Source: Candidatus Latescibacterota bacterium
Lineage (GTDB): Bacteria; Latescibacterota; UBA2968; GCA-2709665
Reading direction: 5' to 3'
NCBI GenBank assembly: GCA_965222075.1
Contig: OZ244937.1
Location: forward strand, 1,792,001-1,856,000
DNA length: 64,000 bases
Part shown: positions 29,500 through 56,381 of the stretch, in pieces
Layout of the letters: every line of letters begins with the position of its first letter
How positions within the stretch are numbered: the stretch's first letter is position 1
Notes under the pieces: generated by a model
The model's database searches: none
The model's input: the letters and a program-made list of their open reading frames with translations, nothing else
Told to the model about the DNA's origin: nothing
Translations under genes and position numbers: made by a program

Positions 29500-32400
29500 C
29501 TACCCTCTCCCCAGCACCCCTCTCAAAAACCGTCCCGTGTGCGATCCCTCCACCTGAGCAACCTCTTCGGGCGTGCCGACCGCCACCATATATCCCCCCT
29601 CGTCGCCGCCCTCCGGCCCCAGGTCGATCACCCAGTCCGCCGTCTTGATCACATCCAGGTTGTGCTCAATCACGATCACCGTATTTCCGGCATTGACCAG
29701 CCGATTGAGCACCTCCAGCAGTTTCTGGATATCCGCAACGTGCAGCCCTGTGGTCGGCTCGTCCAGGAGGTAGACCGTCTGCCCGGTATTCGGACGGGAA
29801 AGTTCCCTGGCCAGCTTCACCCGCTGCGCCTCCCCCCCCGACAGCATCGTGGACGCCTGGCCCAGCACCATATAGCCCAGGCCCACATCCTCCAGCGTCT
29901 GCAGGAACCGGCGTGCCTTCGGCACATTTTCGAAATGCAGCAGCGCCTGTGACACCGTCATCTCCAGCACATCTGAGATCGACCGCTCCCGGAACCGCAC
30001 CTCCAGCACGTCCCGGTTGAAGCGCTTTCCGCTGCACACCTCGCATGTCACCCACACATCGGACAGAAAGTGCATCTCGATGCACCGGGAGCCCAGCCCC
30101 TCGCACGCCTCGCAACGCCCTTTGCGGCTGTTGAAACTGAAGGCCCCCGCCTTGAACCCCCGCACCTGGGCCTCCGGGAGCTGGCTGTAGAGCCGCCGGA
30201 CCTCATCGAACAGCTTCACGTACGTGGCCGGGTTGCTCCGGAGCGAAAACCCGATCGGCGTCTGGTCGATATTGATCACCTTGTCGACCAACTCCAGCCC
30301 CCTGACTTCGTCCCCCCACGCCCCGGACGCCTGGTTAACCCCTGCCGCAAGCGCCCCGAAAAGCACATCGTTCACCAGCGAACTCTTGCCCGACCCCGAC
30401 ACCCCGGTCACGCACGTCAGCGTCCCCAGCGGAAAGCGCACGTCCAGGTCCTTCAGGTTGTTGTGGTGGACGCCGGCCACCTCCAGGGCCTTCCCGTTTG
30501 CAGGCCGCCGCCTGGACGGCACCCGGATCGCCAGCTTCCCCTTGAGGTACTGCGCCGTCAGAGACCCCTTTCGCACGCTCAGCCGCCCGGGTGAATTGGC
30601 GGCCACCACCTGCCCCCCCTCTCTCCCAGCGCCCGGCCCGAAATCCAGGATGTGGTCCGCCGCCTCCAGCGTCTCCCGGTCGTGCTCCACCACCACCAGC
30701 GTATTGCCCAGGTCCCGCAGCCGCTTCAGCGCCGTCAGCAGCCGCTGGTTGTCCCTCTGGTGCAGCCCGATCGTGGGCTCGTCCAGCACGTAGAGCACCC
30801 CGGTCAGCCCGGAACCGATCTGGCTCGCCAGCCGGATACGCTGCGCCTCTCCGCCCGACAGCGTCGGTGCCCGCCGCGAAAGCGTCAGATAGCCCAGCCC
30901 GACCTCATCCAAAAACCACAGCCGGCTCCGGATCTCGTGCAGCACCTCCCCGGCGGCCGCCTGTTCCCGGGGTCCCAGCGCCATCTCCTCGAACCAGGCC
31001 CGGGCCTCTGCAATCGACAGATCCGCCGTCTGGGGCAGCGTCTTGTCCCGCAGCCGGACCGCAGCGCTCACCCGCTTCAGCCGCATTCCCTGGCAGGACG
31101 GACAGGGCACATCCTGCACGAACGCTCCCAGCCCCTTCCGAAACCCGGGCGACAGGCGGACGAGCGCCTCCACGGTGGGGAACAGCCCCCGGTACTGGAA
31201 CCTCAGCCCCCCCGGCCCGTTGATCCATTTATCCCCCAGCCCGTAGAGCAGCGCCTCCACCGCTTTATCGGGCATCTCGGACACCGGCGTGCGCAGGTCA
31301 AATCCAGCCTCCCGGCCCACTGCCGTCAACAGATCCAGCAGCTTCCCGGACAGCAGCCCCCAGGCCGTCACCGCCCCTTCCAGCAGCGACCGCTTCGGAT
31401 CGGGAATCAGCGTATTTTTCCCCATCCCCCGCTGTGTCCCCAGCCCCTCGCAGACCGGGCACCAGCCCTCCGGGCTGTTGAAGGACAGCCGCTGCGGCGT
31501 CACCTCGTCAAAGCTCTGTCCGCAGGAAGCGCATGAGAGGTGCTGGCTGAACCGCGTCTCCTCCTCTCCGTCCGCTACCACCACCACCCCGCCCGACAGG
31601 TCCAGCGCCGCCTTCACGGAATCGGCAATCCGCTTTCGCGCCGACCGCTTCAGCGTGATGCGGTCCACCAGGATCTCCAGCCGGTGCGTCTGCCGGTAGT
31701 CGATCTCCACCGGCGTCTTTAAGAGGAACACCTTCCCGTCCAGCCGCCCCCGCAGATACCCCTCCCGCCGCGCCCGCTCGATCAGCATCTCGTAGTCCTC
31801 TCCCCGCTCCGGCTCCCGGGGCGCCAGCAGGTAAAGCAGGCGCCTGCCTGCCGAGTCGCCTGCCTGCGCCGAGTTCTGCTCGGCAGGCAGGGCGCAGGCA
31901 GGTCCCTCCGGCATCTGCACCACGCGGTCTACGATCTCCTGTGCCGACTGCGCCCCGGCCGCCACCTCGCAATCGGGACAGATCACCTCCCCCAGCAGCG
32001 CAAACAGCGCCCGCAGATAGTCGTTCACCTCCGTCACCGTACCCACCGTGGACCGGGGATTCTTGCTGGCCGCCTTCTGCTCGATCGCAATCGCCGGTGA
32101 AAGCCCCACCACCCGGTCCACCTTTGGTTTGGGCATCCGCCCCAGGAACTGCCTGGCGTAGGCCGACAGCGACTCCACGTAGCGCCGCTGTCCCTCCGCG
32201 TAGACCGTATCCAATGCCAGCGACGACTTCCCCGACCCCGACACCCCCGAAATCACCGTCAGCCTCTCCCTGGGAATCACCGCATCCACATCCTTCAGAT
32301 TGTTCTCCCGCGCCCCCAGCACCTCGATCTTCCGAACCCGCCCGTTTCGCCGTCGCCCCGTCCGGCACCCCGCTCCTGCTCCCGTCCCGGTTGCAGGTTC

Positions 32401-35268
32401 AACGTTGAACGTTGAACGGTCTTCCAACACCGTCCGCAGCGCCCTCCCCGTATGCGACGTCTCCACTCCCGCCACCGCTTCCGGCGTCCCTTCTGCGACC
32501 ACCTCTCCCCCCGCTTCTCCGCCCTCCGGCCCCAGGTCGATCACCCAGTCCGCCGTCTTGACCACCTCTAAGTTGTGTTCGATCACCACCACCGTATTCC
32601 CCAGGTCTACCAGCCGGTGAAGCACGTTCAGCAGGTTTTGAATATCGGCAAAATGCAGCCCTGTGGTCGGCTCGTCCAGGATGTAGAGCGTCCGCCCGGT
32701 GCTCCTGCGGCAGAGCTCCTTCGCCAGCTTCACCCGCTGCGCCTCTCCTCCCGATAAGGTCGGCGCGGGCTGTCCCAGATGGACGTAGCCCATCCCCACG
32801 TCCACCAGCACCTTGAGCACCCGGTGGATCCGGGGCACGTTCTTGAAAAACGCGCATGCCTCCTCCACTTCCATCTCCAGCACATCCGCAATCGAGGCTC
32901 CCCTGTACGTCACGTCCAGGGTCTCCCGGTTGAACCGCCGCCCTTCGCAGACCGGGCAGGCCACCCACACATCCGCCAGGAAATCCATCTCCACCAGGTT
33001 GGCCCCGTTCCCCTGGCAGGCCTCGCATCGCCCCCCCTTCACGTTAAAACTGAACCGCCCCGGTTTGTAGCCCCGCACCTTCGACTCCGGCAGCTCGGCA
33101 AAAAGCGCCCGGATCGGGTCGCACGCCCCCGTGTACGTCGCCGGATTGCTCCGGGGCGTCCGCCCGATCGGCTGCTGATCGATCTCGATCACCTTGTCCA
33201 GGTGCGCCATCCCCTCGATCCGCCGGTAGGCCCCCGGTTCCGTCTCCGCCCGGTTCAGCTCCCGGGCCAGCACCCGGTAGAGAATATGGTCAACCAGGGA
33301 ACTCTTTCCCGACCCCGACACGCCCGTCACACAGACCAGCGCCCGCAGCGGGACCTTCACGTCTACGTTCTTCAAATTGTTCTGCCTCGCGCCCCGCACC
33401 CTCAGCCACTTCCCGTTCACCCTCCGCCGCTGCGGGATCGGGATCGCCTGCTTCCCCGACAGATAGGCCCCGGTAATCGACCCTCGAGCGCGGGCCACCC
33501 GCCGCCAGTCCCCCGAGGCCACCACCTTCCCCCCCAGGTGCCCCGGCCCCGGGCCGAAATCCACCACCCGGTCCGCCCGGCGCATGGTCTCCTCGTCGTG
33601 CTCCACCACAATCACCGTATTCCCGGCGTCCCTGAGGCTGCACAGCGCGTCCAACAGCCTCCGGTTGTCCCGGTGGTGCAGCCCGATCGACGGCTCGTCC
33701 AGGACGTAGGTCACCCCCACCAGCCCGCTCCCAATCTGTCCCGCCAGCCGGATGCGTTGCGCTTCGCCTCCCGACAGCGTCGGCGCCGTTCGGTCCAGGC
33801 TCAGATAGTCCAGACCCACATCCAGCAAAAACGTCAACCGTCCCGTAACCTCCTTCAGCCCGTCCTCCGCAACCGTCTCCTGCGTCGGTGTCAGCGTCAG
33901 CCCCGCAAAAAAGGCATACGCGTCTTCCACCGACATAGCCATCACCTCCGGCAGCGACCGCCCCTCGATCTTCACCGCCAGGGCCTCCGGCCGCAGCCTC
34001 GCGCCCCTGCAATCCGGACAGGAGCCCGTGTGCATAAAAGCCCCCACCTTTCGCTTCCAGAACGCCGTATTGGCCTCGGCGTAGCGCCGCTCTAAGGGCG
34101 GCAGGATGCCCTCAAACGTATCCCGGTGCCGGTAGACCTCCCCGTTTGACCGCCGCCACTCAAACCGGATCTTCCCGAAGACCCCGTAGAGCAGTTCCTG
34201 CCGCCCCTCCTCCGGGATCTCCTTCCAGGGCGTATGCACGCTCGCCCCGTGCCGCTTGAGCACCCCCTCGTAGTAGTGAATCTTCCACCGGTTGCGCGGC
34301 ACGCCAATCGGAGCGATCGCCCCCTCCATCACCGACAGGCGATCCTCCGGCACCACCAGCGCAGTATCCATCGCAATCCGGGTGCCCAGCCCCCGGCAGG
34401 TGGGACACATCCCCTGGGGACTGTTAAACGAAAAAAGCTGGGGCGTGGGCTCGACCGCGCTCAGCCCGCAGTGGGGACAGGCAAAGGTAGAACTCAGCAG
34501 GAGGTCCTCTGCCTCCTCCACGCTCACGATAAGCGTCCCCTTCCCCAGCGCCAGCGCCCCATCCACTGCCTCTCCAAACCGCGCCTGAGCCTCGGACCGC
34601 ACCACCAGACGGTCCACCACCACGTCAATATCGTGCCGGATGTACCGCTCTAAACGCTGTGTACCTGTCTGCGTGCGTGCAGCAGCACGCACAGGCAGGT
34701 CGGTCAGATTCACAATCCGTCCGTCCACCCGCGCCCGGATGTAGCCCTCTCGCTGCAGATCCTCGAACAGGTCCAGGTACTCCCCCTTGCGCCCCCTCAC
34801 CAGCGGCGCCAGCACGTGGACGCGCGTCCCTTCCTCCAGGGCCATGATCCGATCCACGATTCCGTCTCGCGTCTGCGCCCCGATCGGAGCCCCGCAGGAC
34901 GCACAGTGAGGCGTGCCGATGCGCGCAAACAGCACCCGCAGGTAGTCGGTGATCTCCGTCATCGTTCCCACCGTGGAGCGGGGGTTGCGTCCGGCCGTCT
35001 TCTGCTGGATCGACACGGTTGGCGTCAGACCGGTAATCTGGTCCACATCGGGCTTCTCCATCTGCCCCAGAAACTGCCGGGCGTAGGCCGACAGCGACTC
35101 GATGTAGCGCCGTTGCCCTTCGGCGTAAATCGTATCGAACGCTAAAGAGGACTTTCCGGACCCGGACACGCCGGTAAAACAGATCAGCGCATTGCGTGGA
35201 AGCTCCAGATCCACGTCTTTCAGATTGTGGACGCGTGCTCCTTTAATCACGATGTTTCGAGTTTCCAT
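29500..35268 (-). CDS. uvrA: Excinuclease ABC subunit A, tandem double-length form (four ABC domains)
   Basis: Two complete UvrA units, each with GA..NLK, GVSGSGKSSL x2, AEGQRRY.ESLSAYARQFLG, LSGGEAQR x2 and Zn-finger CXXC motifs. Confidence 0.95.
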   Translation of the reverse strand: METRNIVIKGARVHNLKDVDLELPRNALICFTGVSGSGKSSLAFDTIYAEGQRRYIESLSAYARQFLGQMEKPDVDQITGLTPTVSIQQKTAGRNPRSTVGTMTEITDYLRVLFARIGTPHCASCGAPIGAQTRDGIVDRIMALEEGTRVHVLAPLVRGRKGEYLDLFEDLQREGYIRARVDGRIVNLTDLPVRAAARTQTGTQRLERYIRHDIDVVVDRLVVRSEAQARFGEAVDGALALGKGTLIVSVEEAEDLLLSSTFACPHCGLSAVEPTPQLFSFNSPQGMCPTCRGLGTRIAMDTALVVPEDRLSVMEGAIAPIGVPRNRWKIHYYEGVLKRHGASVHTPWKEIPEEGRQELLYGVFGKIRFEWRRSNGEVYRHRDTFEGILPPLERRYAEANTAFWKRKVGAFMHTGSCPDCRGARLRPEALAVKIEGRSLPEVMAMSVEDAYAFFAGLTLTPTQETVAEDGLKEVTGRLTFLLDVGLDYLSLDRTAPTLSGGEAQRIRLAGQIGSGLVGVTYVLDEPSIGLHHRDNRRLLDALCSLRDAGNTVIVVEHDEETMRRADRVVDFGPGPGHLGGKVVASGDWRRVARARGSITGAYLSGKQAIPIPQRRRVNGKWLRVRGARQNNLKNVDVKVPLRALVCVTGVSGSGKSSLVDHILYRVLARELNRAETEPGAYRRIEGMAHLDKVIEIDQQPIGRTPRSNPATYTGACDPIRALFAELPESKVRGYKPGRFSFNVKGGRCEACQGNGANLVEMDFLADVWVACPVCEGRRFNRETLDVTYRGASIADVLEMEVEEACAFFKNVPRIHRVLKVLVDVGMGYVHLGQPAPTLSGGEAQRVKLAKELCRRSTGRTLYILDEPTTGLHFADIQNLLNVLHRLVDLGNTVVVIEHNLEVVKTADWVIDLGPEGGEAGGEVVAEGTPEAVAGVETSHTGRALRTVLEDRSTFNVEPATGTGAGAGCRTGRRRNGRVRKIEVLGARENNLKDVDAVIPRERLTVISGVSGSGKSSLALDTVYAEGQRRYVESLSAYARQFLGRMPKPKVDRVVGLSPAIAIEQKAASKNPRSTVGTVTEVNDYLRALFALLGEVICPDCEVAAGAQSAQEIVDRVVQMPEGPACALPAEQNSAQAGDSAGRRLLYLLAPREPERGEDYEMLIERARREGYLRGRLDGKVFLLKTPVEIDYRQTHRLEILVDRITLKRSARKRIADSVKAALDLSGGVVVVADGEEETRFSQHLSCASCGQSFDEVTPQRLSFNSPEGWCPVCEGLGTQRGMGKNTLIPDPKRSLLEGAVTAWGLLSGKLLDLLTAVGREAGFDLRTPVSEMPDKAVEALLYGLGDKWINGPGGLRFQYRGLFPTVEALVRLSPGFRKGLGAFVQDVPCPSCQGMRLKRVSAAVRLRDKTLPQTADLSIAEARAWFEEMALGPREQAAAGEVLHEIRSRLWFLDEVGLGYLTLSRRAPTLSGGEAQRIRLASQIGSGLTGVLYVLDEPTIGLHQRDNQRLLTALKRLRDLGNTLVVVEHDRETLEAADHILDFGPGAGREGGQVVAANSPGRLSVRKGSLTAQYLKGKLAIRVPSRRRPANGKALEVAGVHHNNLKDLDVRFPLGTLTCVTGVSGSGKSSLVNDVLFGALAAGVNQASGAWGDEVRGLELVDKVINIDQTPIGFSLRSNPATYVKLFDEVRRLYSQLPEAQVRGFKAGAFSFNSRKGRCEACEGLGSRCIEMHFLSDVWVTCEVCSGKRFNRDVLEVRFRERSISDVLEMTVSQALLHFENVPKARRFLQTLEDVGLGYMVLGQASTMLSGGEAQRVKLARELSRPNTGQTVYLLDEPTTGLHVADIQKLLEVLNRLVNAGNTVIVIEHNLDVIKTADWVIDLGPEGGDEGGYMVAVGTPEEVAQVEGSHTGRFLRGVLGRG
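31843..31902 (+). mobile_element. Nested pair of in-frame miniature palindromic elements (27 bp outer + 33 bp inner) inside uvrA
   Basis: CCTGCCTGCCGAGTCG[CCTGCCTGCGCCGAGTTCTGCTCGGCAGGCAGG]GCGCAGGCAGG; removal gives MPEGRLLYLLAP. Confidence 0.8.
34664..34699 (-). mobile_element. 36 bp in-frame miniature palindromic element inside uvrA
   Basis: Minus strand CCTGCCTGTGCGTGC-TGCT-GCACGCACGCAGACAGG, encoding LPVRAAARTQTG. Confidence 0.8.
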
Positions 35269-35534
35269 AAGATTTGGAGGTTCTCCGGACGGAGGTCGTA
35301 TTGGGAGGTTGGCTGACGGCGTTTGGCCGGACAGCCAGACGATATGGGGGAGGACCTGCTATGGGGGAGGACTTTCTCGGATATCGGGTACCATCAAAAG
35401 ATACCGGAACAGGAGAATATACTACTCATTTGTTCACATATCAAGCAAAAAACAAAACGCGCTGCCTTCAGGCAGGGGCAATTCGCGAACTGCCCCTGCT
35501 CCGACCTGCTCGACGGTGGATTCGGTGAGGGTGG

Positions 35535-36857
35535 TCACGTTACCTCCATCGGTGTTTCCCAAAGCAAGCGAAGCGGTACGGCGTAGAGTCCGTCGCCAAA
35601 GCGGGTACAGGTCTCTCCGTCGTACAGCACTACGCCTCCGGCGAACCGGCTGCCCGTTGCGGCTCTCAACTTGCACAAGCCGCGGAAGTCCGCCCTGGTC
35701 ACAGTGGCACCCGCCTTCACCTCCACTCCCGCAACCGCCAGCGCTCCGCACTCAACGACAATGTCCACCTCCACCTTGTCCTTGTCGCGGTAGTGGAAAA
35801 ACGCCAGGGGGGACTCGTGCCAGCTCGCCTGCCGCCGCAACTCCTGGAACACGAAGGTCTCGAGAAGCTGACCTATCAGTGTTCGGTCGGCCGCCAGTCC
35901 TGCCGCATCTATCCCCAGAAGCGCACAAGCAAGGCCGGTATCGCCGATGTGCAGCTTTGGCGTCTTGATGAGGCGGCTCAGCCGATTGTGGTGCCATGGG
36001 GGAAGCCTCTCCAGCAAAAACACCTGTTCGAGTAGCTTGACATAGTGAAAGATCGTCGGTCGGCTGAGCTGGAAGGGCGAAGCCAGATCAGAGACATTCA
36101 GCAGCCTGGCCGTCTGTGCCGCCGCCAATCCGAGTAGGCGAGGCAGTGCCTCAAGACTGCCGATCCGCGCCAGATCGCGCACATCGCGCTGCACCTGGGC
36201 ATCGAGATAGTCGCGATACCAGTTGGCCCGCCGCCGGCCGGCAGGCCGGGCAAGTGCTGCCGGATACCCACCGGCAACGATGCGCTCGCCAAGCTGACTA
36301 CCGAGCCGCTCGACCCGTTGCATCTTGAATCCACCCCCGAATAGAGCGTCGAGGAATCCGGAGAATCGAGCCGTGGTTATTCCAAGCTCGCACTGCGCGA
36401 GCGGATGCAGCCTGACCGTCTCCATACGGCCCGCCAGGGAGTCCGACAAGTTGGGGACCAGCAGCACATTGGTTGAGCCTGTCAGCACGAAACGCCCCGG
36501 CACGCGGCTGCGATCCACTTCCATCTTCAGCGCGCTGAAGAGCGTGGGGACGCGCTGCACTTCGTCCAGAATGACGCGCTCAGGCAGATCGGCAACAAAA
36601 CCCATGGGGTCGGCCTGGGCACCAGCGCGTACCACATCATCGTCGAAGCTGATGTATGTGTAGTCGCGGTGTTGTTGGGAAAATCCCCCAATAAGGCGGT
36701 CATCGCCCCATTTCAAATATTGCGGCACGAGCACCATCTGCGCGAGCGTAGTCTTGCCGCATTGGCGTGGACCGTGAATCAGGACAATCGGTGAGTCCTC
36801 TAACGCCTCCGTAAGAGGCCGCTCGGCAAAGCGCGGGTAAAGCTGGGTCTCTGGCAT
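35535..36857 (-). CDS. AAA+ ATPase with DUF4143 domain (COG1373 family)
   Basis: GPRQCGKTT, LDEVQR, LTGS, GGYP, KTPKLHIGDTGL, EVDIV..VEVK. Confidence 0.9.
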   Translation of the reverse strand: MPETQLYPRFAERPLTEALEDSPIVLIHGPRQCGKTTLAQMVLVPQYLKWGDDRLIGGFSQQHRDYTYISFDDDVVRAGAQADPMGFVADLPERVILDEVQRVPTLFSALKMEVDRSRVPGRFVLTGSTNVLLVPNLSDSLAGRMETVRLHPLAQCELGITTARFSGFLDALFGGGFKMQRVERLGSQLGERIVAGGYPAALARPAGRRRANWYRDYLDAQVQRDVRDLARIGSLEALPRLLGLAAAQTARLLNVSDLASPFQLSRPTIFHYVKLLEQVFLLERLPPWHHNRLSRLIKTPKLHIGDTGLACALLGIDAAGLAADRTLIGQLLETFVFQELRRQASWHESPLAFFHYRDKDKVEVDIVVECGALAVAGVEVKAGATVTRADFRGLCKLRAATGSRFAGGVVLYDGETCTRFGDGLYAVPLRLLWETPMEVT

Positions 36858-36863
36858 CGGCTA

Positions 36864-36892
36864 ATTGTAAGTATTGTGTCGTCTGATTGCAA
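36864..36892 (-). promoter_or_regulatory. Sigma70-type promoter, probably giving a leaderless mRNA
   Basis: TTGCAA-17 bp-TACAAT ends 6 nt before the ATG at 36857; no SD. Confidence 0.55.
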
Positions 36893-36989
36893 GTTTATAA
36901 TGCGGCCAATTGCAACTTTATCGCCGAGATGAAAGCCCGCCCAACGTAGGGGCAACCCTTGTGGTTGCCCTGTTGGGCGTGGATTGGGC
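36879..36989 (+). repeat. 111 bp repeat, copy 1 (inverted copy at 61370-61480), containing a GTAG-type REP-like palindrome
   Basis: Reverse complement matches 61370-61480; includes GTAGGGGCAACCCTTGTGGTTGCCCT. Confidence 0.9.
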
Positions 36990-37095
36990 ACCTCCGGGGG
37001 ACGCGCCTGCCTGCTGCCAACATACGCGGTCATTCAGGGGAAAGCAAGAGGAAAAAGAGAGCGTCGGCGTCTCGCTGAAACCCTGCTTAAAACAG

Positions 37096-37124
37096 TTGAC
37101 CGAAGCGGCGAATGTAAGTATGTT
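37096..37124 (+). promoter_or_regulatory. Putative sigma70 promoter of the sugar-catabolic operon
   Basis: TTGACC-17 bp-TATGTT. Confidence 0.45.
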
Positions 37125-37288
37125 TGGTGAATCTGCCGCTCATACGGGGGCGTCACGGTCGGAGAGTCAAAAGGAACGGACTGGAAGGCCATAGCCCCCG
37201 GGGTGGCGGAACGCCTGAAGGGTGAACCGAATTCCCGCCGGTCTGACCTGGCCGGAATAAGACTCAAATCAAGGAGAGACACCCCCCT

Positions 37289-47823: not shown

Positions 47824-48155
47824 TGTCGGCCTTTCCCAGGCGATACGCGATCTACTCTGCCGACCTCAATCCCACCGTGGGTGGAGAGATCCGCAAAGTG
47901 CGCCCGGTTGTGGTGGTCAGTCAGAATGAGATGAATCAGTTTCTGGATACGGTTGTCGTCTGTCCCCTCACCTCCACGTTGCATCCTCAGTGGCGGACCC
48001 GGATGCAGATCCAATGCGCGGGTAAGGAGGCTGAAATTGCCGTGGACCAGATCCGCCCCATCAGCAAGCAGCGACTGAGGCGCCGGATCGACCGACTGTC
48101 CGCCGAGGAAGCGGCCCAGCTCCGACGCCTTATCACGGAGATGTACGGGGAATAG
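47820..48155 (+). CDS. PemK/MazF-family endoribonuclease toxin
   Basis: DLNPTVGGEIRKVRPVVVVS, PLTS, DQIRPISKQRL. Confidence 0.9.
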   Translation: MMSAFPRRYAIYSADLNPTVGGEIRKVRPVVVVSQNEMNQFLDTVVVCPLTSTLHPQWRTRMQIQCAGKEAEIAVDQIRPISKQRLRRRIDRLSAEEAAQLRRLITEMYGE

Positions 48156-48174
48156 CGATTACCACCGCGCTTTC

Positions 48175-48360
48175 GTGCAGTTGCGGCGGATGCTCGCCGT
48201 CTTGCGTGACGACTGGACCGGATGGTGCCGGTTTTTCCTGGAAGCGGTGCGGGTGCAGACCCAGGACAACCTGTTCGTGGGATGCCGTCGTTCGACTCCG
48301 GAGGAAGCATGCAAGGTCAACGCGGCAATTGAAGCAAACCTGGGGAGAATTAGAGATTGG
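48175..48360 (+). pseudogene. Mosaic remnant: Fic-like fragment plus degenerate hsdM 3' end
   Basis: LAVLRDDWTGWCRFFLEAVRVQ resembles the Fic C-terminal helix; EEACKVNAAIEANLGRI resembles the HsdM end [16 protein letters not shown]. Confidence 0.55.
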
Positions 48361-48460
48361 CATTGAGGCTCAAATGATTTGGTCGATACAGTGACAATCC
48401 GGATTACGGTAGAGATACTATTTTCTATTGGCACTGAAAGGAACCTGGGGAGAGCACACT

Positions 48461-49657
48461 ATGGAAGGCAAGAGGTTTATTCGAACGATCCGGCTGGATA
48501 ACATACTATCCTACGGTTCCTGGGACGCGGAGTTCCATCTGGAGCCGTTGAACGTTCTCATTGGCCCTAACGCTTCCGGAAAGTCGAACTTGATCGAAGT
48601 GCTGTCGCTTCTCGCAGCAGCACCTACTCGGGATCTTCAAGCACCGATTCGAGAAGGTGGGGGCGTTCGCGATTGGCTATGGAAGGGTGCCACCCGACTC
48701 GCCACGGCAACCGTGGACGTGACCGTCGAGTACCACGGGGAACAGCCGCTCAGGTATCGACTGTCGTTCACAGAGAGCAGGGCGCGTTTCGAACTCAGGG
48801 ACGAGGCCGTCGAGAACGAGAAGCCAACGCCAGGCAACGAAGACCCGTATATTTACTACCGATACCAGGAAGGCCGTCCGGTGCTCAACGTCTTCACGCA
48901 GGAGGAGTCCCGATTTCATCGGCGCCTCACGCGTGAAGACGTGCATCCCGAGCAGTCGATTTTGTCTCAACGCCGCGACCCCGACTCCTATCCGGAATTG
49001 ACCTATTTGGCTGGCAGATTCGAGCGTATGCGCTTCTACCGCGAGTGGAACCTCGGGCGCTCCACGCCGCCCCGCCTTCCGCAGCAGGCCGACCTCCCAC
49101 AGGACAGCCTACTGGAGGACGCCTCGAATCTCGGCTTAGTGCTAAGCATTTTGTTAAATCAACCGCCTGTCAAGCGCCAAATTCTGGATCACTTGACGAT
49201 CTTCCATCCGTCGGTCGAGGATATTCTCGCCACAATAAACAGCAGTACGGTGCAGTTATTCTTACACGAAGAAGGCTTGCATCATCCCGTGCCTGCCACC
49301 CGGCTTTCTGACGGGACTCTGCGTTATCTCTGCCTGCTTGCCGTGCTCTGCCATCCCAATCCGCCGCCAGTCATCTGCATTGAGGAGCCGGAACTCGGCC
49401 TGCATCCGGATGTGATCCCGGAGGTGGCGACGCTTCTGATCAAGGCGTCGTCGCGTAGCCAACTTTTCGTCACGACACACTCCGACATTCTCATAGATGC
49501 GCTCACGGATACCCCGGAGGCCGTGATTGTCTGCGAGAATCGCAACGGAGCGACGCAACTCCGTCGGCTGGACGCCGAGGAACTCGAGCCCTGGCTCGAG
49601 AAATACCGGCTTGGGGAGCTTTGGATACGGGGAGATATAGGAGGGAATCGCTGGTGA
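48461..49657 (+). CDS. AAA_21/AAA_15 (OLD-like ABC) ATPase
   Basis: GPNASGKSN, LSDGTLR, IEEPELGLHP, VTTHS. Confidence 0.9.
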   Translation: MEGKRFIRTIRLDNILSYGSWDAEFHLEPLNVLIGPNASGKSNLIEVLSLLAAAPTRDLQAPIREGGGVRDWLWKGATRLATATVDVTVEYHGEQPLRYRLSFTESRARFELRDEAVENEKPTPGNEDPYIYYRYQEGRPVLNVFTQEESRFHRRLTREDVHPEQSILSQRRDPDSYPELTYLAGRFERMRFYREWNLGRSTPPRLPQQADLPQDSLLEDASNLGLVLSILLNQPPVKRQILDHLTIFHPSVEDILATINSSTVQLFLHEEGLHHPVPATRLSDGTLRYLCLLAVLCHPNPPPVICIEEPELGLHPDVIPEVATLLIKASSRSQLFVTTHSDILIDALTDTPEAVIVCENRNGATQLRRLDAEELEPWLEKYRLGELWIRGDIGGNRW

Positions 49658-50334
49658 GCATCAAGCTCTACGTGGAAGGAGGAGGCAGTAGTAAGGCCCT
49701 CAAAAGGGCGTGCCGCAAAGGCTTTCGCATTTTCATCGAGAAAGCCGGGTTGCAAGGAAGGATGCCCAAGATTGTGGCCTCCGGCAGTCGCAAAAACGCC
49801 TATGAGGACTTCGAGAAAAAACATGACCATGCCGCCCATGAAGATGTAAGCGCTCTGCTCTTGGTGGACGCTGAGGGGCCGGTAGGGGAAGCGGAGCCGT
49901 GGCAGCATCTCAAAGACCGTGATGGCTGGAATCGCCCTGACGGCGCAACCGACGACCAATGCCACCTCATGGTTGAGGTTATGGAAACTTGGTTTCTGGC
50001 TGATCGTAGGGCGCTCAGGGTATTTTATGGGCAGGGCTACAGGGAAAACGCGCTCCCTCCGAATCCGCAGGTCGAACAGATTCCCAAACAGGATGTCCTC
50101 AACGGACTTGACAGGGCCGCCAACGGTACGACAAAAGGGAGCTATGACAAGGGATCGCACAGTTACGAGATCCTGGCGAAAATAGACCCGGAGAAAGTCA
50201 AGAACGTGTCGCCCTATGCAAATCGCTTGATCGAGACACTTTTCAAGTTTGGGGGAAGTGAGGCTCCAGAGGATAAAGATTCCGTGAGCGGGAAACCAGT
50301 GGATAGATCGGGCCGGAGGGATCGTCTGGGGTAA
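49654..50334 (+). CDS. DUF4276-family (TOPRIM-like) protein, partner of the ATPase
   Basis: LYVEGG, LLVDAE, VMETWFLAD, YDKG; GTG overlaps the ATPase stop. Confidence 0.8.
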   Translation: MSIKLYVEGGGSSKALKRACRKGFRIFIEKAGLQGRMPKIVASGSRKNAYEDFEKKHDHAAHEDVSALLLVDAEGPVGEAEPWQHLKDRDGWNRPDGATDDQCHLMVEVMETWFLADRRALRVFYGQGYRENALPPNPQVEQIPKQDVLNGLDRAANGTTKGSYDKGSHSYEILAKIDPEKVKNVSPYANRLIETLFKFGGSEAPEDKDSVSGKPVDRSGRRDRLG

Positions 50335-50452
50335 GGATGCCAAACTGTGTGCGGAGGCTCTATATATACAAGTTACCGGCAAGTCCATTGAACAAATGAT
50401 GCCGGGTGCACGGGCTCTGTTGGAAGGTGCCCGAACTCTGCCGATTCTACGC
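50305..50452 (+). pseudogene. Remnant of a DUF2442-DUF4160 gene junction
   Basis: IVWGKDAKLCAEALYIQVTGKSIEQMMPG plus VPELCRFY, matching [29 protein letters not shown] / MPEICRFY at 53475-53605. Confidence 0.75.
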
Positions 50453-50474
50453 AACCTGGATTTGGAGACCAGCG

Positions 50475-52238
50475 ATGAGTTACAGCGACGAAGATATCGT
50501 GCGCCAACTCCAATTGGGTGAAGACAGCCACTGGGAATTCAAAGAGATCGCGTTTGCCGGAAGCGTTCCCAAGAGTCCCCGCCGGGATGACCTGGCGGAT
50601 GAGATCGCGGCGTTCGCCAATGCGAACGGCGGCGTGCTGCTCTGCAGCGTCACCGACGAAGGCAAGGTGCGGGGCATGTCGCGTGAACAGATCGTCGCGT
50701 TGGATTCTTTTCTGGTCGAAGTGAGCTCCGACTCCATCAGACCGGCCGTTCGTATCCGCACGTATCACAAGCAACTCCCTGACGACAAGCGGTTGCTGCT
50801 GGTCGATGTCCCGGAGGGCGATTCACAGCATGACAGCCCCGGTGGAAGCTATGTTCGTGTAGGCGGTTCAAAGCGAAGGATGACGAGTGACGAGCGGCTG
50901 CGCCTGGCGCAACGACGGGGACAGGCACGTTTCCGATCATTCGACGAGCAAACCGTTCCGGATACCGGATTCAAAACTCTGGATGAATCGCTTTGGAAAC
51001 CCCTGTTGAGTGCCGAGGGCGCAGCGGATCCTGAGGCAGCGCTCGTGAAGTTGGCGCTCCTGGCGTCCGACGAGGCCGGGGTCTCGCGTGCCACGGTGGC
51101 TGGCGTGTTGTTGTGCACCCGAAATCCCGAGCAGTGGCTCTCCAACGCCTGCATTACGGCGACCCGTTACAGGGGAAAGGATCGTGCCTCCGGCCAGATC
51201 GATGCGCAGGAAATTACCGGCCCGCTGAACCGGCAAATCGCCGATGCGGTGGCCTTCGGCGTAAGGAACATGCACGTTGCGGCGCGCAAGGAGCCGGGGC
51301 GCGTGGATCTGCCTCAGTACAGCGACAAGGCGCTGTTCGAGGCCCTGGTCAACGCCGTAGCGCATCGCGACTATTCAATGCGCGGTAGCAAAATTCGCCT
51401 TTCGATGTTCGAAGACCGCCTGGAGATTCAGTCGCCGGGCTCGCTACCGAACAACCTGACGGTGGAGAGTATGGCAACGCGGCAAGCGACTCGAAACGAA
51501 GCATTGACCTCCGTGCTGGGACGAATGCCGGTAGGGGGAGTCCGGGGCTCTGAGGACAGACAGTACTTCATGGAGCGCCGCGGAGATGGTGTTCTGATCA
51601 TCCGGCGCGAAACCCGGGAACTCTGCGGGAAACTGCCTGAGTATCGACTGATCGATGACTCGGAAGTCTGCCTCACTCTCCCCGCGGCAACGCAGGAACA
51701 GAGCCCTGCCCGCGCCGTCATCACCGTGCGCTCCGTCGGCCAACCCTTGCCTGGTGCCGACCTGTTGACTCTTTTTCCGAACAAGACCTGGAAGCGTGCG
51801 ACCACAGACGAAAACGGCGAGGCGGCCATTGATCTGCACACCACGCATCTCCCCATGACAGTCTTTGCGGCCGCTCCCGGGTACGCCGCGCATCTGGAAC
51901 GAGAATGGGTGCCGAGCCAGGGCGCGCTCGCAATAGAACTTGAACCCCTGCCGGAGGGCGGTGCGGTCATTTTTCCGGAGGCGACCGGCTACCTTCCGGG
52001 TTTGACGGGACGGTTGAATCCCATCCTGGATACCCACGCCAGAACCTACCTCTACGCCTCCAACATCGCCATTAACCAGGGCGAGCAGCAGCCGGTCCAC
52101 TTCATTCTCGGAGAAGAATTGCGATTAACCGATAACAAAGGAATCGAACTGCTGGTGCGCATTGTCGATATTGTGGGCCGGTCGGCGCTTGTGGAATACC
52201 GCCCATATCCGGAGGAGAAGACACATGCTGGTCAGTGA
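50475..52238 (+). CDS. AlbA_2 (Schlafen-like) + HATPase_c_4 protein with extra C-terminal beta domains
   Basis: EDSHWEFKE, IAAFANANGG, EALVNAVAHRDY, IQSPG, MERRGDG. Confidence 0.82.
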   Translation: MSYSDEDIVRQLQLGEDSHWEFKEIAFAGSVPKSPRRDDLADEIAAFANANGGVLLCSVTDEGKVRGMSREQIVALDSFLVEVSSDSIRPAVRIRTYHKQLPDDKRLLLVDVPEGDSQHDSPGGSYVRVGGSKRRMTSDERLRLAQRRGQARFRSFDEQTVPDTGFKTLDESLWKPLLSAEGAADPEAALVKLALLASDEAGVSRATVAGVLLCTRNPEQWLSNACITATRYRGKDRASGQIDAQEITGPLNRQIADAVAFGVRNMHVAARKEPGRVDLPQYSDKALFEALVNAVAHRDYSMRGSKIRLSMFEDRLEIQSPGSLPNNLTVESMATRQATRNEALTSVLGRMPVGGVRGSEDRQYFMERRGDGVLIIRRETRELCGKLPEYRLIDDSEVCLTLPAATQEQSPARAVITVRSVGQPLPGADLLTLFPNKTWKRATTDENGEAAIDLHTTHLPMTVFAAAPGYAAHLEREWVPSQGALAIELEPLPEGGAVIFPEATGYLPGLTGRLNPILDTHARTYLYASNIAINQGEQQPVHFILGEELRLTDNKGIELLVRIVDIVGRSALVEYRPYPEEKTHAGQ

Positions 52239-52341
52239 GTTGATCGAGCTGCTTCGAGCACTGGCTTGAGAAATATCGGCTCACCGGCGAAGTTAGACGC
52301 CGGTTCAAGGAGGGTAAACACATGCAACAGGAGAGCATCCG

Positions 52342-52650
52342 ATGACACCTATTGTCGAGGAGCGGGTCGGCGAGCTGCGGCAACTCTGCGTCCGTTACCG
52401 TGTTCTGCGGCTTGATCTGTTCGGCTCGGCTGCCACCGACAACTCCCATGGGGACGAAAGCGACCTGGACTTCCTGGTTGAATTCCAAACGCTGCCCTCG
52501 GGAGAATATGCCGACGCCTACTTCGGGCTGCTGGAGGCTCTGGAGCTGCTCTTTGGACACCCTGTGGACCTCATCGTTGACTCGGCCATCAAGAACCCCT
52601 TCTTCCGGCAACGCGTTGACGAGACCAGGACACTGCTCTATGCGGCTTGA
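52342..52650 (+). CDS. Minimal nucleotidyltransferase (MNT/MntA-like antitoxin)
   Basis: LFGSAA...SDLDFLVEF. Confidence 0.88.
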   Translation: MTPIVEERVGELRQLCVRYRVLRLDLFGSAATDNSHGDESDLDFLVEFQTLPSGEYADAYFGLLEALELLFGHPVDLIVDSAIKNPFFRQRVDETRTLLYAA

Positions 52651-52981
52651 AGCTCGGAAATATCTGTATGACATCCAAAGAGCTGCGGGCTTACTGGATG
52701 AATTTGTTACCGGCAAGACCTTTGCTGATTATCAGCGCGACGCCATGCTGCGAGCCGCAGTAGAGCGTGAGTTCGAGATCATTGGCGAGGCCATGACGAA
52801 ACTGGCTAAAGTCGAAGAAGCGGTGGCTGCCCGGATCAGCGGGTTTCAACGCATCATCGCCTTCCGCAACGTCCTTATTCACGAATACGCTGACGTGGAT
52901 GACCGACTGGTGTGGGATGTGGTCGAGACCAATCTTCCGACCCTCGTCCGCGAGATCAACGCCCTGTTGGAGGATGGATGA
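52640..52981 (+). CDS. HepT-like (DUF86) HEPN RNase toxin
   Basis: [15 protein letters not shown] (RX4H), VWD. Confidence 0.88.
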
Positions 52982-52998
52982 GTGGAGTTTGTGGGCTG

Positions 52999-53307
52999 GA
53001 GGACATCTTTCGCGTCGCAGACACCTACCACGCCTGGCGCGGCGGCGATGGCGAGTACGACGACATCCCCGGCTTCTGCAAGTCGGCGACACTGGAAGAG
53101 ATACGCAAGCACGGCCATGTCCTCACCCCCGGCCGCTACGTCGGCGCAGAAGCGCAGGAGGATGATGGGGAGCCGTTCGAAGACAAGATGGTGCGGCTCA
53201 CCGCCCAATGGCGGGAGCAGCAGGCCGAAGCGTGGAAACTGGACGCGGCTATCGCGGCCAACCTGGCGCAGCTGGGGTTCGGAGAGAGCACGGAGGGAGA
53301 ACAATGA
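52999..53307 (+). pseudogene. Second copy of the hsdM 3' end (about 100 codons)
   Basis: [14 protein letters not shown]...[33 protein letters not shown]...KLDAAI, highly similar to 47067-47366. Confidence 0.9.
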
Positions 53308-53588
53308 TTCGACCGACTGAAGTCGAGGCCCGCGATGGATACCGGATATGGCTCCGGTACTCGGACGGGGTAGCGGGAGAGGCCGACCTGTCTCATCTGG
53401 CAGGGCATGGCCCGTTCGCAGCCTGGAACAACCGCAGATGCTTCGAGGCGGTGCATATCGGCCCATCTGGAGGGGTCGTCTGGGGAGATGACATCGAGCT
53501 TTGCCCGGACGCCCTCTATATGCAAATTACCGGCAAGGCCGTCGAGGAAGTGATGCCGGGCGTACGGACCTTGACTGAAAATGCCTGA
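53304..53588 (+). CDS. DUF2442-domain protein (TA component)
   Basis: [25 protein letters not shown]. Confidence 0.82.
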
Positions 53589-53841
53589 GATTTGCAGATT
53601 CTACGGAATCGTCATACGCATGTATTTTGACGACCACTGGCCGGCTCACTTCCACGCGCTGTACGGCGAGGATGAAGCGGTAATAGGAATTGACAGCCTG
53701 GCTGTATTGCACGGGCGTCTGTCACCACGCGCCCAGGGCCTTGTGGTCGAGTGGGCCTCCCTCCGACAAGTGGAACTCCGGCAAGCATGGGACCGAGCCA
53801 AACGCCTGGAGCAGCCTGGCAGCATCGCACCCTTAGACTGA
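53581..53841 (+). CDS. DUF4160-domain protein (TA component)
   Basis: [26 protein letters not shown]. Confidence 0.88.
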   Translation: MPEICRFYGIVIRMYFDDHWPAHFHALYGEDEAVIGIDSLAVLHGRLSPRAQGLVVEWASLRQVELRQAWDRAKRLEQPGSIAPLD

Positions 53842-53897
53842 CGCCGGGGTGATGAGCATGATGAGCAGTAGTGCAATTCACAGACGGAGGAAAGCTT

Positions 53898-54143
53898 GTG
53901 ACCGTCGGACAGTTGGTACAGGTACTGCAGAGCTATCCGCAGGACATACGTGTCGTCGTGAACGGCTACGAAGAGGGCTACGACGACCTGTCGCCGGAGC
54001 AGATATCCTCGGTCAAGATAGCTTTGAACACAGGAAAACATCCCTGGGAGGGACGGCACGGAGATCCTCGCCATCCGGCGGAAGGGACTCCGGACGACAC
54101 CAGGGTCGTCAAGTCCCTGGTTCTCTGTCGAGTGTCCAATTGA
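53898..54143 (+). CDS. Small hypothetical protein
   Basis: SD GGAGG then GTG; VTVGQLVQVLQSYPQDIRVVVNGYEEGYDD. Confidence 0.65.
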   Translation: MTVGQLVQVLQSYPQDIRVVVNGYEEGYDDLSPEQISSVKIALNTGKHPWEGRHGDPRHPAEGTPDDTRVVKSLVLCRVSN

Positions 54144-54165
54144 TGATGCAATCCAAAGGTCGAGC

Positions 54166-54582
54166 ATGATTGATTACGACAAGTTTCAGATGTCGCTCAA
54201 ACGCCTGGAAGAGCAGCACGAGAATTACCAGCAACTCGACGCCTCGCTACCGGAATTGACCCAGGAAGCCATCGCCGAGTCGGTCATCCAGCGTTTCGAG
54301 ACCTGCTATGACTGCCTGTGGAAGGTATTGAAACGATACCTGACTGAAGAACTGGGCATCCCTGACACGCCCAACAGTCCCAAGCCCATCTTCAGACTGG
54401 CCCACGAGAACCATCTGTTCGACTCGTCGCTGGAGCAATGGCTCGGCTATGCGGATCGGCGCATCGATACCACCCACGACTACAGCGGTGAGAAGGCGAA
54501 AGCCTGTCTGGACATCATGGGCGCGTTCATCGACGACGCCATAGGCCTCTACCAGACTATGAGCGGGGAAACATGGGAATAA
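54166..54582 (+). CDS. Nucleotidyltransferase substrate-binding (HI0074-type HEPN) protein
   Basis: IQRFETCYDCLWKVLKRYL, SPKPIFR, RIDTTHDY. Confidence 0.88.
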   Translation: MIDYDKFQMSLKRLEEQHENYQQLDASLPELTQEAIAESVIQRFETCYDCLWKVLKRYLTEELGIPDTPNSPKPIFRLAHENHLFDSSLEQWLGYADRRIDTTHDYSGEKAKACLDIMGAFIDDAIGLYQTMSGETWE

Positions 54583-56381
54583 ACCAGGACATTGACATCA
54601 CCGCAGAGCAGCGCAAAACCGTTCTGGCGTTGCTCCAAAGGCATCTGCCGAACACCACCGCCTGGGTCTATGGCTCCCGCGCCCAATGGACCTCGCGGCC
54701 GCAATCCGATCTCGACATGGTGGTATTCGCAACGCCGGAGCAAAACAGCCGGGTTTCCGATCTCAGGGAATCATTCGAGGAAAGCAACCTGCCGTTTCGA
54801 GTGGATTTGTTTATCTGGGATGAAGTGCCCGAGCAGTTCCGAAATCAGATTGAAGCCGAGCATGCGGTGTTGGCGGAGAGAGAAGAACAATCGCGGCTAA
54901 CTTTAAACCTAGCTACCGCAGACGAGGCCGCTCCCTTGCGAGAAATTCTCGCCTACACACGCGATGGTGAGTGGGGAGCGGGAGATATAAACGCCAACCT
55001 CATTCCTATGCGAGTTATCCGAGGCACGGATTTTGAAGCTGTAAGTCGCGGGAGTTTGGCGAATGTTCCAACTCGATACATTCGTCCTGACGTGTCTGCA
55101 AGAAAGACTCTGAAGCCTTGGGACATACTTATCGAGACGGCAGGGGGATCTAAAAATCGTCCGACAGGTCGCACATTGTTGGTTCACCCACGAATTTTGG
55201 AACGCTCGGAGATCCCTGTCACTTGTGCGAGCTTTGCCCGTTTCCTCCGTATCCATTGTGATCGGGCGAACCCAGCATACATTTATTGGTTTCTTCAACA
55301 CCTATATTCCATCGGTGAAATGGAAAAGCATCAAGTTCAACATACAGGTGTTGCTCGATTTCAATTTACAGATTTTGCCGCGAATATCGAAGTTCCGCTT
55401 CCTCCCCTCCCCGAACAACGTGCCATCGCCCACATCCTGGGCACGCTGGACGACAAGATCGAGCTGAACCGGCGCATGAACGAGACGCTGGAGGAGATGG
55501 CCCGGGCGCTGTTCAAGTCGTGGTTCGTCGATTTCCTGCCTGTGCGTGCGAAACAACGTGCACGCACGCCTGCCTGCGTCCGCAGGACAGGCAGGCAGAC
55601 AGGTGATCCCGTCCGCGCCAAAGCGGCCCTCATTACTCCCCCTCCGGGGGGGAGTGATTGGACCGTCGAACGGGCCCGCGCCTACCTGCCTGCCGCGCGG
55701 GGCTTGGCGCAGGCAGGTCTGGCCGGCATGGACGCCAGCATCGCCGACCTCTTTCCCGACCGGCTCGTGGACTCGGAGCTGGGGCCGATACCTGAGGGGT
55801 GGGAGGTTGGCGTTCTGGATGATGCTATAGAACTCCTCAGCGGCGGAACCCCTCGCACATCGGTAGCCAGCTACTGGGGTGGAGACATTCCCTGGTATAC
55901 CGCGAAAGACGCTCCCTCCCTGAGCGACGTTTTTGTTTTGGACACTGAAAGGACCATTACACAAGCAGGAGTTGAGAACAGTGCTACCAATATCCTTCCC
56001 TTCGGAACAACCATCATCACTGCCAGAGGTACGGTAGGCAGGCTGGCCTGTCTTGGAGTGCCGATGGCCATGAATCAGACCTGTTACGGTATCCGAGGTG
56101 CCCGAGGCTACCCGAACTTCTTCACATACTGGAACGTCAGGAGGACGGTAGATGAGCTGCAGAGCCGAACCCATGGCACTATCTTCGACACGATAACACG
56201 CCAGACTTTCAAACTTGTCGAGACAGCATTGCCGCCTGCGGAACTGGCGGAGGCGTTTGAGTTGACAGTAACCCCTGTGATGGGACGCATTCTCTGCAAC
56301 CTGCTGGAGTCTCGCACCCTCGCCACCCTGCGGGATGCGCTGCTGCCGAAGTTGGTGTCTGGCGAAGTACGGATTAGATGA
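54573..56381 (+). CDS. hsdS: MNT nucleotidyltransferase fused to type I RM specificity subunit
   Basis: N-terminal YGSRA..SDLD; PPLPEQRAIAHILGTLDDKIELN, WFVDF, IPEGW, LRDALLPKLVSGE; two TRDs. Confidence 0.9.
   Translation: MGINQDIDITAEQRKTVLALLQRHLPNTTAWVYGSRAQWTSRPQSDLDMVVFATPEQNSRVSDLRESFEESNLPFRVDLFIWDEVPEQFRNQIEAEHAVLAEREEQSRLTLNLATADEAAPLREILAYTRDGEWGAGDINANLIPMRVIRGTDFEAVSRGSLANVPTRYIRPDVSARKTLKPWDILIETAGGSKNRPTGRTLLVHPRILERSEIPVTCASFARFLRIHCDRANPAYIYWFLQHLYSIGEMEKHQVQHTGVARFQFTDFAANIEVPLPPLPEQRAIAHILGTLDDKIELNRRMNETLEEMARALFKSWFVDFLPVRAKQRARTPACVRRTGRQTGDPVRAKAALITPPPGGSDWTVERARAYLPAARGLAQAGLAGMDASIADLFPDRLVDSELGPIPEGWEVGVLDDAIELLSGGTPRTSVASYWGGDIPWYTAKDAPSLSDVFVLDTERTITQAGVENSATNILPFGTTIITARGTVGRLACLGVPMAMNQTCYGIRGARGYPNFFTYWNVRRTVDELQSRTHGTIFDTITRQTFKLVETALPPAELAEAFELTVTPVMGRILCNLLESRTLATLRDALLPKLVSGEVRIR
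55535..55603 (+). mobile_element. Nested in-frame palindromic elements (42 bp outer + 27 bp inner) in hsdS
   Basis: Removing 69 bp restores WFVDFDPVRAK exactly; inner copy at 55569-55595. Confidence 0.85.
55685..55717 (+). mobile_element. 33 bp in-frame palindromic element in hsdS
   Basis: CCTGCCTGCCGCGCGGGGCTTGGCGCAGGCAGG; removal gives ERARAYLAGMD. Confidence 0.8.

Follow-up and report, generated by a model that had tools for sequence, protein, structure and literature searches.

Introduction

Short palindromic repeats inside genes, uvrA included, were already described in 2013: the excerpts of Di Nocera, De Gregorio & Rocco (2013; PMC3733652) on which we draw deal with short (20–40 bp) intragenic repetitive extragenic palindromes (REPs), the Rickettsia palindromic elements RPE-4 and RPE-6 among them, and place REPs within uvrA of Opitutus and Thioalkalivibrio and within uvrB of Rickettsia conorii. 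In-frame Rickettsia palindromic elements (RPEs) have also been reviewed (PMC10969869, likewise in excerpt), and RPE-1 is a palindromic element of ~100–150 bp that lies in frame in many unrelated genes and encodes a conserved peptide (Ogata et al. 2000, as cited in the excerpts of PMC10969869 and PMC3733652). Here we analyse a stretch of 64,000 nucleotides from a Candidatus Latescibacterota bacterium (contig OZ244937.1, positions 1,792,001 to 1,856,000; hereafter the window), in which short bulged hairpins lie in frame within uvrA and hsdS. We document their insertion, its precision, a polymorphism between strains, structural covariation, a target preference and compatibility with the reading frame, and we consider it probable that the hairpins make up a mobile DNA family whose members are miniature (27–36 bp) and non-autonomous.

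Two further systems provide background. IS200/IS605 elements are moved by HUH-type Y1 transposases in a hairpin-dependent manner: they leave no target duplication, excise precisely, and insert in a fixed orientation beside a short specific sequence. In Nostoc, small dispersed repeats (SDRs) of 21–27 nt, some of them hairpin-forming, were reportedly described by Elhai et al. in 2008 as inserted in each other and in genes, with no known enzyme. For the elements studied here, an Rfam search of the window matched no family, and the literature on short repeats yielded no account of the CCTGCCTG...CAGGCAGG motif family.

Results

Insertions in uvrA and hsdS

The element is one imperfect palindrome: 8-bp inverted termini (CCTGYCTG / CAGRCAGG) enclose an inner stem-loop, and a 2-nt bulge gives polarity. 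Three sub-families have these termini in common: family A reads CCTGCCTG-stem-loop-stem'-CG-CAGGCAGG; family B is built as family A but has the right terminus CAGACAGG; and family B' has a TG/CA bulge and includes 25-mers. The window is part of a single-contig genome (G000) of 5.36 Mb and 59.3% GC, and in a comparison of its double-UvrA protein the closest named relatives were metagenome-assembled Candidatus Latescibacterota.

This double UvrA, a tandem-fused protein of 1922 amino acids (aa), is encoded at 29500..35268 on the minus strand. In the first half of the gene lies a 36-bp family B element (34664..34699, minus strand; the plus strand reads CCTGTCTG-CG-stem7-loop4-stem7-CAGGCAGG; fold −14.2 kcal/mol), which is in frame, adds the 12 aa LPVRAAARTQTG to the predicted UvrA and maps to a loop of the UvrB-interaction domain. 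In the second half lies a 60-bp composite (31843..31902, plus strand), likewise in frame and adding 20 aa, in which a 27-bp family A outer copy (31843–31858 and 31892–31902) holds a nested 33-bp family A element (31859..31891, minus strand; fold −13.8 kcal/mol, z = −4.4).

Both inserts are missing in 25/25 aligned UvrA orthologues, which include that of the same-genus genome G001 (94% identical) and those of three named Latescibacterota. DNA alignment with G001 places the 36 bp exactly between ...TGTA|TCGG... and the 60 bp between ...GGCG|TCCC..., with a 1-nt ambiguity at the latter junction; neither insertion shows a target-site duplication. Moreover, the 36-bp copy is polymorphic among near-identical strains: contigs of sequencing runs X1 and X3 contain it, and contigs of runs X6 and X9 join 34663 to 34700 ('skips 36, CC..GG'), with 151 letters on the shorter side. 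As the four runs come from four different studies, the contigs with and without the copy reflect a polymorphism and not an assembly artefact, which bears out the recent activity proposed in the initial annotation of this DNA. Contigs reach into the 60-bp insert from either side, but they end within it and none bridges the site. A composite identical to this 60-bp one occurs at genome position 1741864 and one with two differences at 558202, in both cases with unrelated flanks; the same composite at unrelated sites implies that it moved as a unit set by its outer termini.

The UvrA that hosts these elements is a fusion of two complete UvrA units, kept in 25/25 relatives examined, and a separate UvrA paralogue of canonical length is encoded at genome position 2684645–2687395.

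The second host gene in the window encodes an HsdS specificity subunit of 602 aa (54573..56381, plus strand). Site 1 holds a 69-bp composite (55535..55603, plus strand; 23 aa) made up of a 42-bp family B outer copy and a 27-bp family A element (55569..55595, minus strand) that nests in the outer copy, with the CG bulge of the latter on one side and its right terminus on the other; site 2 holds a 33-bp family A element (55685..55717, plus strand) that encodes the 11 aa LPAARGLAQAG. Among 43 aligned homologues, site 1 is empty in 18, carries the outer copy only in 17 (14 aa, LPVRAKQRARTQTG), holds the nested form in 7 and is ambiguous in 1, and site 2 is filled in 20 and empty in 18, the region being missing in 5. 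The two sites vary independently, and all combinations of their states are seen. Empty sites thus exist for all of the UvrA and HsdS inserts, and the six elements originally reported at 31843–31902, 34664–34699, 55535–55603 and 55685–55717 read as claimed. It had also been claimed that removing them restores normal protein: insert-free HsdS homologues indeed read WFVDFDPVRAK and ERARAYLD.MD at the two sites, in keeping with the 25/25 insert-free UvrA orthologues.

Several features of the HsdS protein and its surroundings deserve mention. Its N-terminus carries a nucleotidyltransferase (Polbeta) domain in place of the expected first target-recognition domain, and in many of its homologues the central linker where the hairpin elements sit also has an inserted DUF559/MTES_1575 endonuclease-like domain. 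Within 55535–55620, the 42-bp insert encodes LPVRAK directly before the DPVRAK of the host, with different codons; this likeness may be due to chance, or to a target or peptide preference. Two further hsdS-like stretches, at genome positions 1349600 and 3413627, carry the site-2 element at the same position, and its presence in all three indicates an insertion older than the duplication or exchange of the hsdS module. From 48000 to 64000 the window has a GC content of 0.50–0.59, compared to 0.61–0.65 elsewhere, and a reversed GC skew, and it encodes Schlafen/AlbA_2, HsdS, an Mrr-type endonuclease and DUF4357; this part looks like an acquired defence island. Elements have entered both a core gene, uvrA, and a gene of this probable island, hsdS, as had been noted.

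Beyond these two genes, we compared five further sites in three other genes of the genome with their orthologues: four sites are cleanly empty there (5/5, 3/3, 1/1 and 1/1), and the fifth, in a variable region, is ambiguous. The host genes include those of UvrA, a UvrD-like helicase (two copies), HsdR and HsdS; in the UvrD-like and HsdR genes the insertions consist of the bare element and end exactly. Mobility, as initially proposed, is thus supported by empty sites in UvrA, in HsdS and in further orthologues.

Copy number and nesting

The pattern CCTGCCTG-N5-35-CAGRCAGG, sought on both strands, matches 11 times in the window, compared to 0.01 expected from 100 shuffles, and CCTGCCTG itself occurs 18 times compared to 3.2 expected. 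A lazy pattern search of the genome gave 292 matches, 210 of which have a length divisible by three; with spans of ≤48 there are 255 matches, and 0, 0 and 0 in three first-order Markov genomes. Counting by recursive excision, in which nested copies are removed stepwise, resolves 250 elements (233 simple ones and 17 outer members of nests): 125 of family A, 64 of family B, 35 of family B', and 26 that are atypical or unclassified. The genome-wide search for which the initial annotation had called therefore finds some 250 copies, and none in simulated genomes. Lengths peak at 33, 27, 30 and 36, the main size range being 27–36 bp, and the copies lie in 132 single, 28 double and 16 larger clusters. 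The raw copy numbers exceed the number of insertion events, passengers of larger repeats being included. Since some copies travel in such repeats, flanks were clustered, and 161/250 copies were kept as a unique-flank set.

Nesting follows no single rule. From the two nests in the window it had been proposed that the inner copy is opposite in orientation and sits beside the CG bulge of the outer one; this fails across the genome, where the inner copy is opposite in 9 of the 17 nests, the same in 7 and of undetermined orientation in 1, and where insertion points vary among loops, stems and positions beside the bulge.

Elements also accumulate in low-GC insertion-sequence DNA. An ISLre2-like (UPF0236) transposase frame (genome 3463714–3465240) holds four of them, a second copy of this insertion sequence (2831408–2832925) has two of the four, and a DDE_Tnp_1 transposase gene (4023177–4023953) holds elements as well.

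A conserved fold with covarying stems

Folded as single-stranded DNA, the elements are hairpins that contain a 2-nt bulge; single copies in the window have folding energies of −8.8 to −16.3 kcal/mol. The termini are fully paired, and the elements have neither a tail nor an unpaired GTAG or CGTC tag. The 38 distinct family A 33-mers do not vary in their termini or in the CG bulge; their 5-bp stem is Watson–Crick in 159/190 cells, compared to 35–79 in slid registers, and two stem pairs show compensatory changes (C-G 27 / A-T 8 and C-G 13 / A-T 11). These counts agree with the earlier reading that the inner stems vary yet stay paired. Family B folds fully on one strand only, where it has G·T; the other strand has C·A.

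Target site

A purine occupies position −1 in 230 of the 250 copies and a pyrimidine position +1 in 219; A is almost missing at −2, as is T at +2. The T that had been seen after all four outer copies in the window is therefore an instance of a wider rule, a pyrimidine. Direct repeats in the flanks of the 250 copies are no commoner than chance, which agrees with the two exact uvrA insertions and with the earlier claim of no target-site duplication. The preference holds in the 161 unique-flank copies (purine at −1 in 144, pyrimidine at +1 in 139) and is largely symmetrical, with −1/+1 steps of G|C in 47, A|T in 45, G|T in 15 and A|C in 15. In G021, a relative with 23 unique-flank copies, the −1 purine is found in 23/23 and the +1 pyrimidine in 20/23.

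Orientation reveals an asymmetry further upstream. With the bulge set 3', CC occupies −4−3 in 52/140 oriented unique-flank copies and the mirrored GG in 19/140 (p = 8e-6), and CCGA is the top upstream tetranucleotide (28/140; genome frequency 0.006). The TCGG beside the 36-bp uvrA element is already there in the empty site of G001, which shows that the motif is part of the target and not of the element.

Fit to coding sequence

Genic and intergenic copies were distinguished with a simple in-house gene caller (3874 genes, 85% of the genome). With this crude caller, 106/250 of all copies and 85/161 of the unique-flank copies fall in called genes (42–53%), 138 fall between genes and 6 across a gene edge; the density is 88–174 per Mb between genes and 19–23 per Mb in genes, that is, 5–7-fold higher between them. 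All seven elements of the window (36, 27+33, 42+27, 33 and 39 bp) have lengths divisible by three, as had been said of the six originally reported, and the same is true of 94 of the 106 copies in called genes, 101 of the 138 between genes and 3 of the 6 across a gene edge. The tabulation of length by location proposed in the initial annotation gives, for families A and B together, multiples of three in 85/91 copies inside called genes and 85/95 between genes: the prevalence inside genes stands, and it is found outside them too. In a conservative set, 30/32 copies in 25 strongly coding genes are divisible by three.

The elements are also largely open to translation. No stop triplet occurs on either strand in 222/244 copies (~91%, six frames), compared to 27% of random genomic pieces, 41% of shuffled copies and 53% of interior-shuffled copies. 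Both orientations and all three phases are used, phase 2 (Leu-Pro...) most commonly. Because the families are stop-free and multiples of three, insertions would add 9–23 residues without destroying the protein; the open frames suggest that the inserts are translated, and the pattern is consistent with selection for coding compatibility.

Distribution in relatives, larger repeats and phages

Among 41 relatives the number of copies per genome ranges from 0 to 134, and the dominant stem variant differs from genome to genome. In a survey of 168 genomes of the phylum, the A-type pattern was found in 15/21 other genomes of the same family, in 1/31 of the neighbouring family and as singletons elsewhere. 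One relative, G003, has 49 identical 33-mers, all in one ~450-bp repeat; a clean recent burst is thereby ruled out for them, as they are passengers of that repeat, which also occurs in G000 (~17 copies) and in G021. The larger repeat is intergenic and starts ~18 bases before the embedded 33-mer, and one of its G003 copies directly adjoins a group II intron.

Phages carry the elements as well: 13/22 viral contigs that match the pattern have well-paired copies. Four IMG/VR contigs (L211, L215, L217 and L226) have well-formed elements inside long predicted-phage reading frames, and related IMG/VR contigs have insertion sites in common. Among the phage frames that host elements are one that has a Phage_capsid_4 domain and one for a lambda-type portal protein.

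Search for a mobilising enzyme

At 27–36 bp the elements are too short to encode anything, and G000 contains no long element that shares their ends and stems, the 25 candidate pairs there being ends of separate short copies; the description of the elements as non-autonomous is thus upheld. The proposed check for HUH, RAYT or TnpA genes flanked by the motif gave a single adjacency, in G021; neither Y1 nor RAYT nor Y2 genes follow the distribution of the element, and HUH or RAYT mobilisation is no more than a lead.

Across 41 genomes, IS200-type Y1_Tnp (PF01797) matches do not track copy number; G004, with 32 matches, and G038, with 75, have 0 elements each. G000 itself encodes a Y1-type protein at 2071937–2072296. 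A search with the RAYT model NF047646 in 41 genomes gave matches above cut-off in five copy-bearing genomes of one genus, g2. RAYT-like domains also occur inside reading frames of 1200–1440 aa in G002, G003, G020 and G021. The RAYT-like gene of G000 (3242104–3242860; 47 bits) is low in GC and both contains and precedes copies of a short repeat, GACAGYTTGTRCTACAAC.

A broken IS200-like gene in AT-rich DNA (L112; genome 3018501–3018919) has a B' 25-mer ~150 bp upstream of its 5' end, and in IS200 elements the left-end hairpin is expected at about that position. We regard this 25-mer as a weak lead to the enzyme.

Other copies in the window

A 39-bp family A element at 24880..24918 (minus strand), missed in the initial annotation, falls within a reading frame for an ABC transporter, in its N-terminal extension, and may sit upstream of the true start codon of that gene. 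Two half copies had been proposed, near 60208 and 37006: the former, at 60208..60230 (plus strand), is a probable truncated copy that keeps the left terminus and hairpin and has lost the right terminus, whereas the latter has no hairpin and may be a chance match.

Discussion

Our results are best explained by a family of mobile hairpins that inserts into genes and intergenic DNA alike. In the mechanism that we propose, insertion of the whole hairpin is exact, as its removal probably is, and leaves no target duplication; the target is a purine|pyrimidine step, with a preference for CCGA before it, opposite the bulge side; a nested composite moves as one unit; and the folded strand would be recognised by an enzyme supplied in trans. 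An HUH-type or similar enzyme acting on a folded single strand is a real but minority possibility, the remaining probability falling to an unknown recombinase or nuclease: an HUH-type route would fit with insertions that duplicate nothing, a bulge that is conserved, G·T pairing on one strand only and a tetranucleotide with a set orientation, and the missing strand bias and missing gene speak against the known families.

Several results weigh against this mobile-element interpretation. No enzyme was identified in searches for Y1, RAYT and IS91-type genes and for a long element. The intact IS200-type gene of G000 has an unrelated hairpin; all five examined RAYT loci of a sister genus (L121–L125, in G021, G002, G009, G018 and G020) are flanked by another hairpin repeat, GCGAGGGCA-N3-4-TGCCCTCGC; the repeat that flanks the RAYT-like gene of G000 differs from the element; and IS91-type Y2_Tnp (PF04986), sought in 22 genomes, occurs in genomes with 0–1 copies and is absent from copy-rich ones. 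With origin and terminus placed by GC skew and dnaA, the unique-flank copies show no significant replication-strand bias (62 vs 78, p = 0.2), an earlier bias of 89 vs 127 having gone after removal of shared-flank copies. The CC/CCGA asymmetry is not reproduced among the 23 unique-flank copies of G021 (3 vs 2). About 17 copies in G000, and many in relatives, are embedded in the larger repeat. Finally, only 6/138 intergenic copies are without an open frame of at least 80 codons, and the intergenic class rests on the crude gene caller, a caveat that the claim of an intrinsic multiple-of-three length carries with it.

One rival explanation is that the elements are ordinary REPs of the REP/REPIN-RAYT system and owe their movement to a RAYT tyrosine transposase. 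They are REP-like in size, in being imperfect palindromes, in copy number and in their 5–7-fold higher density between genes, and intragenic REPs are documented (PMC3733652, in excerpt); within g2, the five genomes with a small RAYT (~100 bits) have 14–134 copies and those without have 0–30, and in G021 the RAYT reading frame is followed, after 10 bp, by a 33-mer. This association within one genus is nevertheless undermined, as GCGAGGGCA-N4-TGCCCTCGC, a repeat that occurs only 3 times in G000, flanks the RAYT genes in 5/5 loci, and it may be mere shared ancestry. No CCTGCCTG motif lies within 1.5 kb of the RAYT loci of G009 and G002, G000 has more than 120 copies but just a 47-bit RAYT-like gene with a different flanking repeat, and the elements have no unpaired GTAG or CGTC tag; we therefore consider an ordinary REP origin unlikely. 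It is improbable, too, that no dedicated transposition is involved and that copies spread as passengers of larger repeats, phages or recombination, or through capture at breaks by host repair. The 49 identical G003 33-mers in one ~450-bp repeat that recurs in G000 and G021, the copies in phage capsid and portal frames, and the failure to find an enzyme would all fit such passive spread; it does not account for the unique flanks of 161/250 copies or for the bare, exact-ended insertions in uvrA, UvrD-like and HsdR genes, and a specific step of recognition is suggested by the target preference together with the conservation of termini and bulge.

Movement as duplex DNA, by classical MITEs (miniature transposable elements with inverted repeats) derived by deletion from a DDE-type insertion sequence, appears very improbable: exact junctions show no target-site duplication and direct repeats in the flanks do not exceed chance, a search of G000 for a longer element that shares ends and stems with the copies gave none, the size is far below that of known MITEs, and bulge polarity correlates with an asymmetric upstream motif. 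These points stand against the 8-bp terminal inverted repeats, the mostly symmetrical −1/+1 preference (G|C 47 and A|T 45 vs G|T 15 and A|C 15) and the gathering of copies in and near insertion sequences, all of which a MITE would explain. For ancestral protein loops or assembly artefacts nothing was found in favour, and both are refuted, with a probability close to nil, by the 25/25 empty UvrA orthologues, the full range of HsdS intermediates, the contigs from four studies and the ~250 copies with unrelated flanks.

A bolder version of the mobile-element interpretation, which we hold to be doubtful at present, is a new minimal transposon class: a bulged hairpin of 27–36 bp, translatable in any frame and orientation, mobilised by an enzyme outside RAYT, IS200 and IS91, carried by phages, and continually adding peptides to UvrA and UvrD-like helicases. 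If this were true, peptide insertions would be continually generated in core proteins. The family as observed shows how small a mobile unit can be, and how selfish DNA can be shaped to be harmless in genes: some 50% of the independent copies are found within reading frames, and the genes concerned include those for DNA repair, for restriction and for phage capsid and portal proteins. The exact empty sites and the polymorphism among near-identical strains make it a tractable natural system for finding the mover of REP-like hairpins, given that the mover of the transposase-less CGTC REPs is still an open question, and it could serve to study the tolerance of proteins to random insertions of 9–23 residues. 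The copies also call for caution, as they inflate and split gene models in metagenome-assembled genomes.

Compared to IS200/IS605, which has left and right ends that differ, the Latescibacterota element is one hairpin, its target motif is only a preference (CCGA, 20%), and it shows neither a replication-strand bias nor a matching Y1 gene. The Nostoc SDRs differ from it in host phylum and sequences, and we know of no report of multiple-of-three length or stop-free design in them. With RPE-1 it has in common that selfish palindromic DNA lies in frame in unrelated genes without destroying them; it differs in its length of 27–36 bp, in a peptide that varies with phase and orientation, and in its unrelated sequence (RPE-1 as presented in the excerpts of PMC10969869 and PMC3733652). 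The initial annotation had set the elements apart from Rickettsia elements said to be much longer: this is correct for RPE-1 but overlooks the short RPE-4 and RPE-6 and the 20–40 bp intragenic REPs that appear in the excerpted PMC3733652.

The likeness to intragenic REPs of the GTAG and CGTC super-families, as far as the excerpts of PMC3733652 present them, is considerable: these are also palindromes of 20–40 bp, present in tens to thousands of copies, some of them wholly in reading frames where they encode extra residues; their hosts include the DNA-repair genes uvrA, uvrB and UvrD-type helicases; and CGTC REPs, too, are without a dedicated transposase. Membership of a RAYT system would place the same repeat beside the transposase gene, whereas the RAYT loci of these genomes are flanked by other repeats. 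Measured against the REPs in those excerpts, the Latescibacterota termini (CCTGYCTG / CAGRCAGG) are fully paired, untagged and tail-less, with an internal 2-nt bulge; 42–53% of copies lie in called genes; nesting, exact empty sites and strain polymorphism are seen; and the host belongs to another phylum. Multiple-of-three length in and outside genes and freedom from stops in six frames also appear to set the element apart from the REPs presented there. In conclusion, palindromic repeats within genes have precedents, and what is new here is the combination of paired, untagged termini with a bulge, a frame-compatible design, a high intragenic share, nesting with movement of composites, empty sites, strain polymorphism and the phylum in which they occur.

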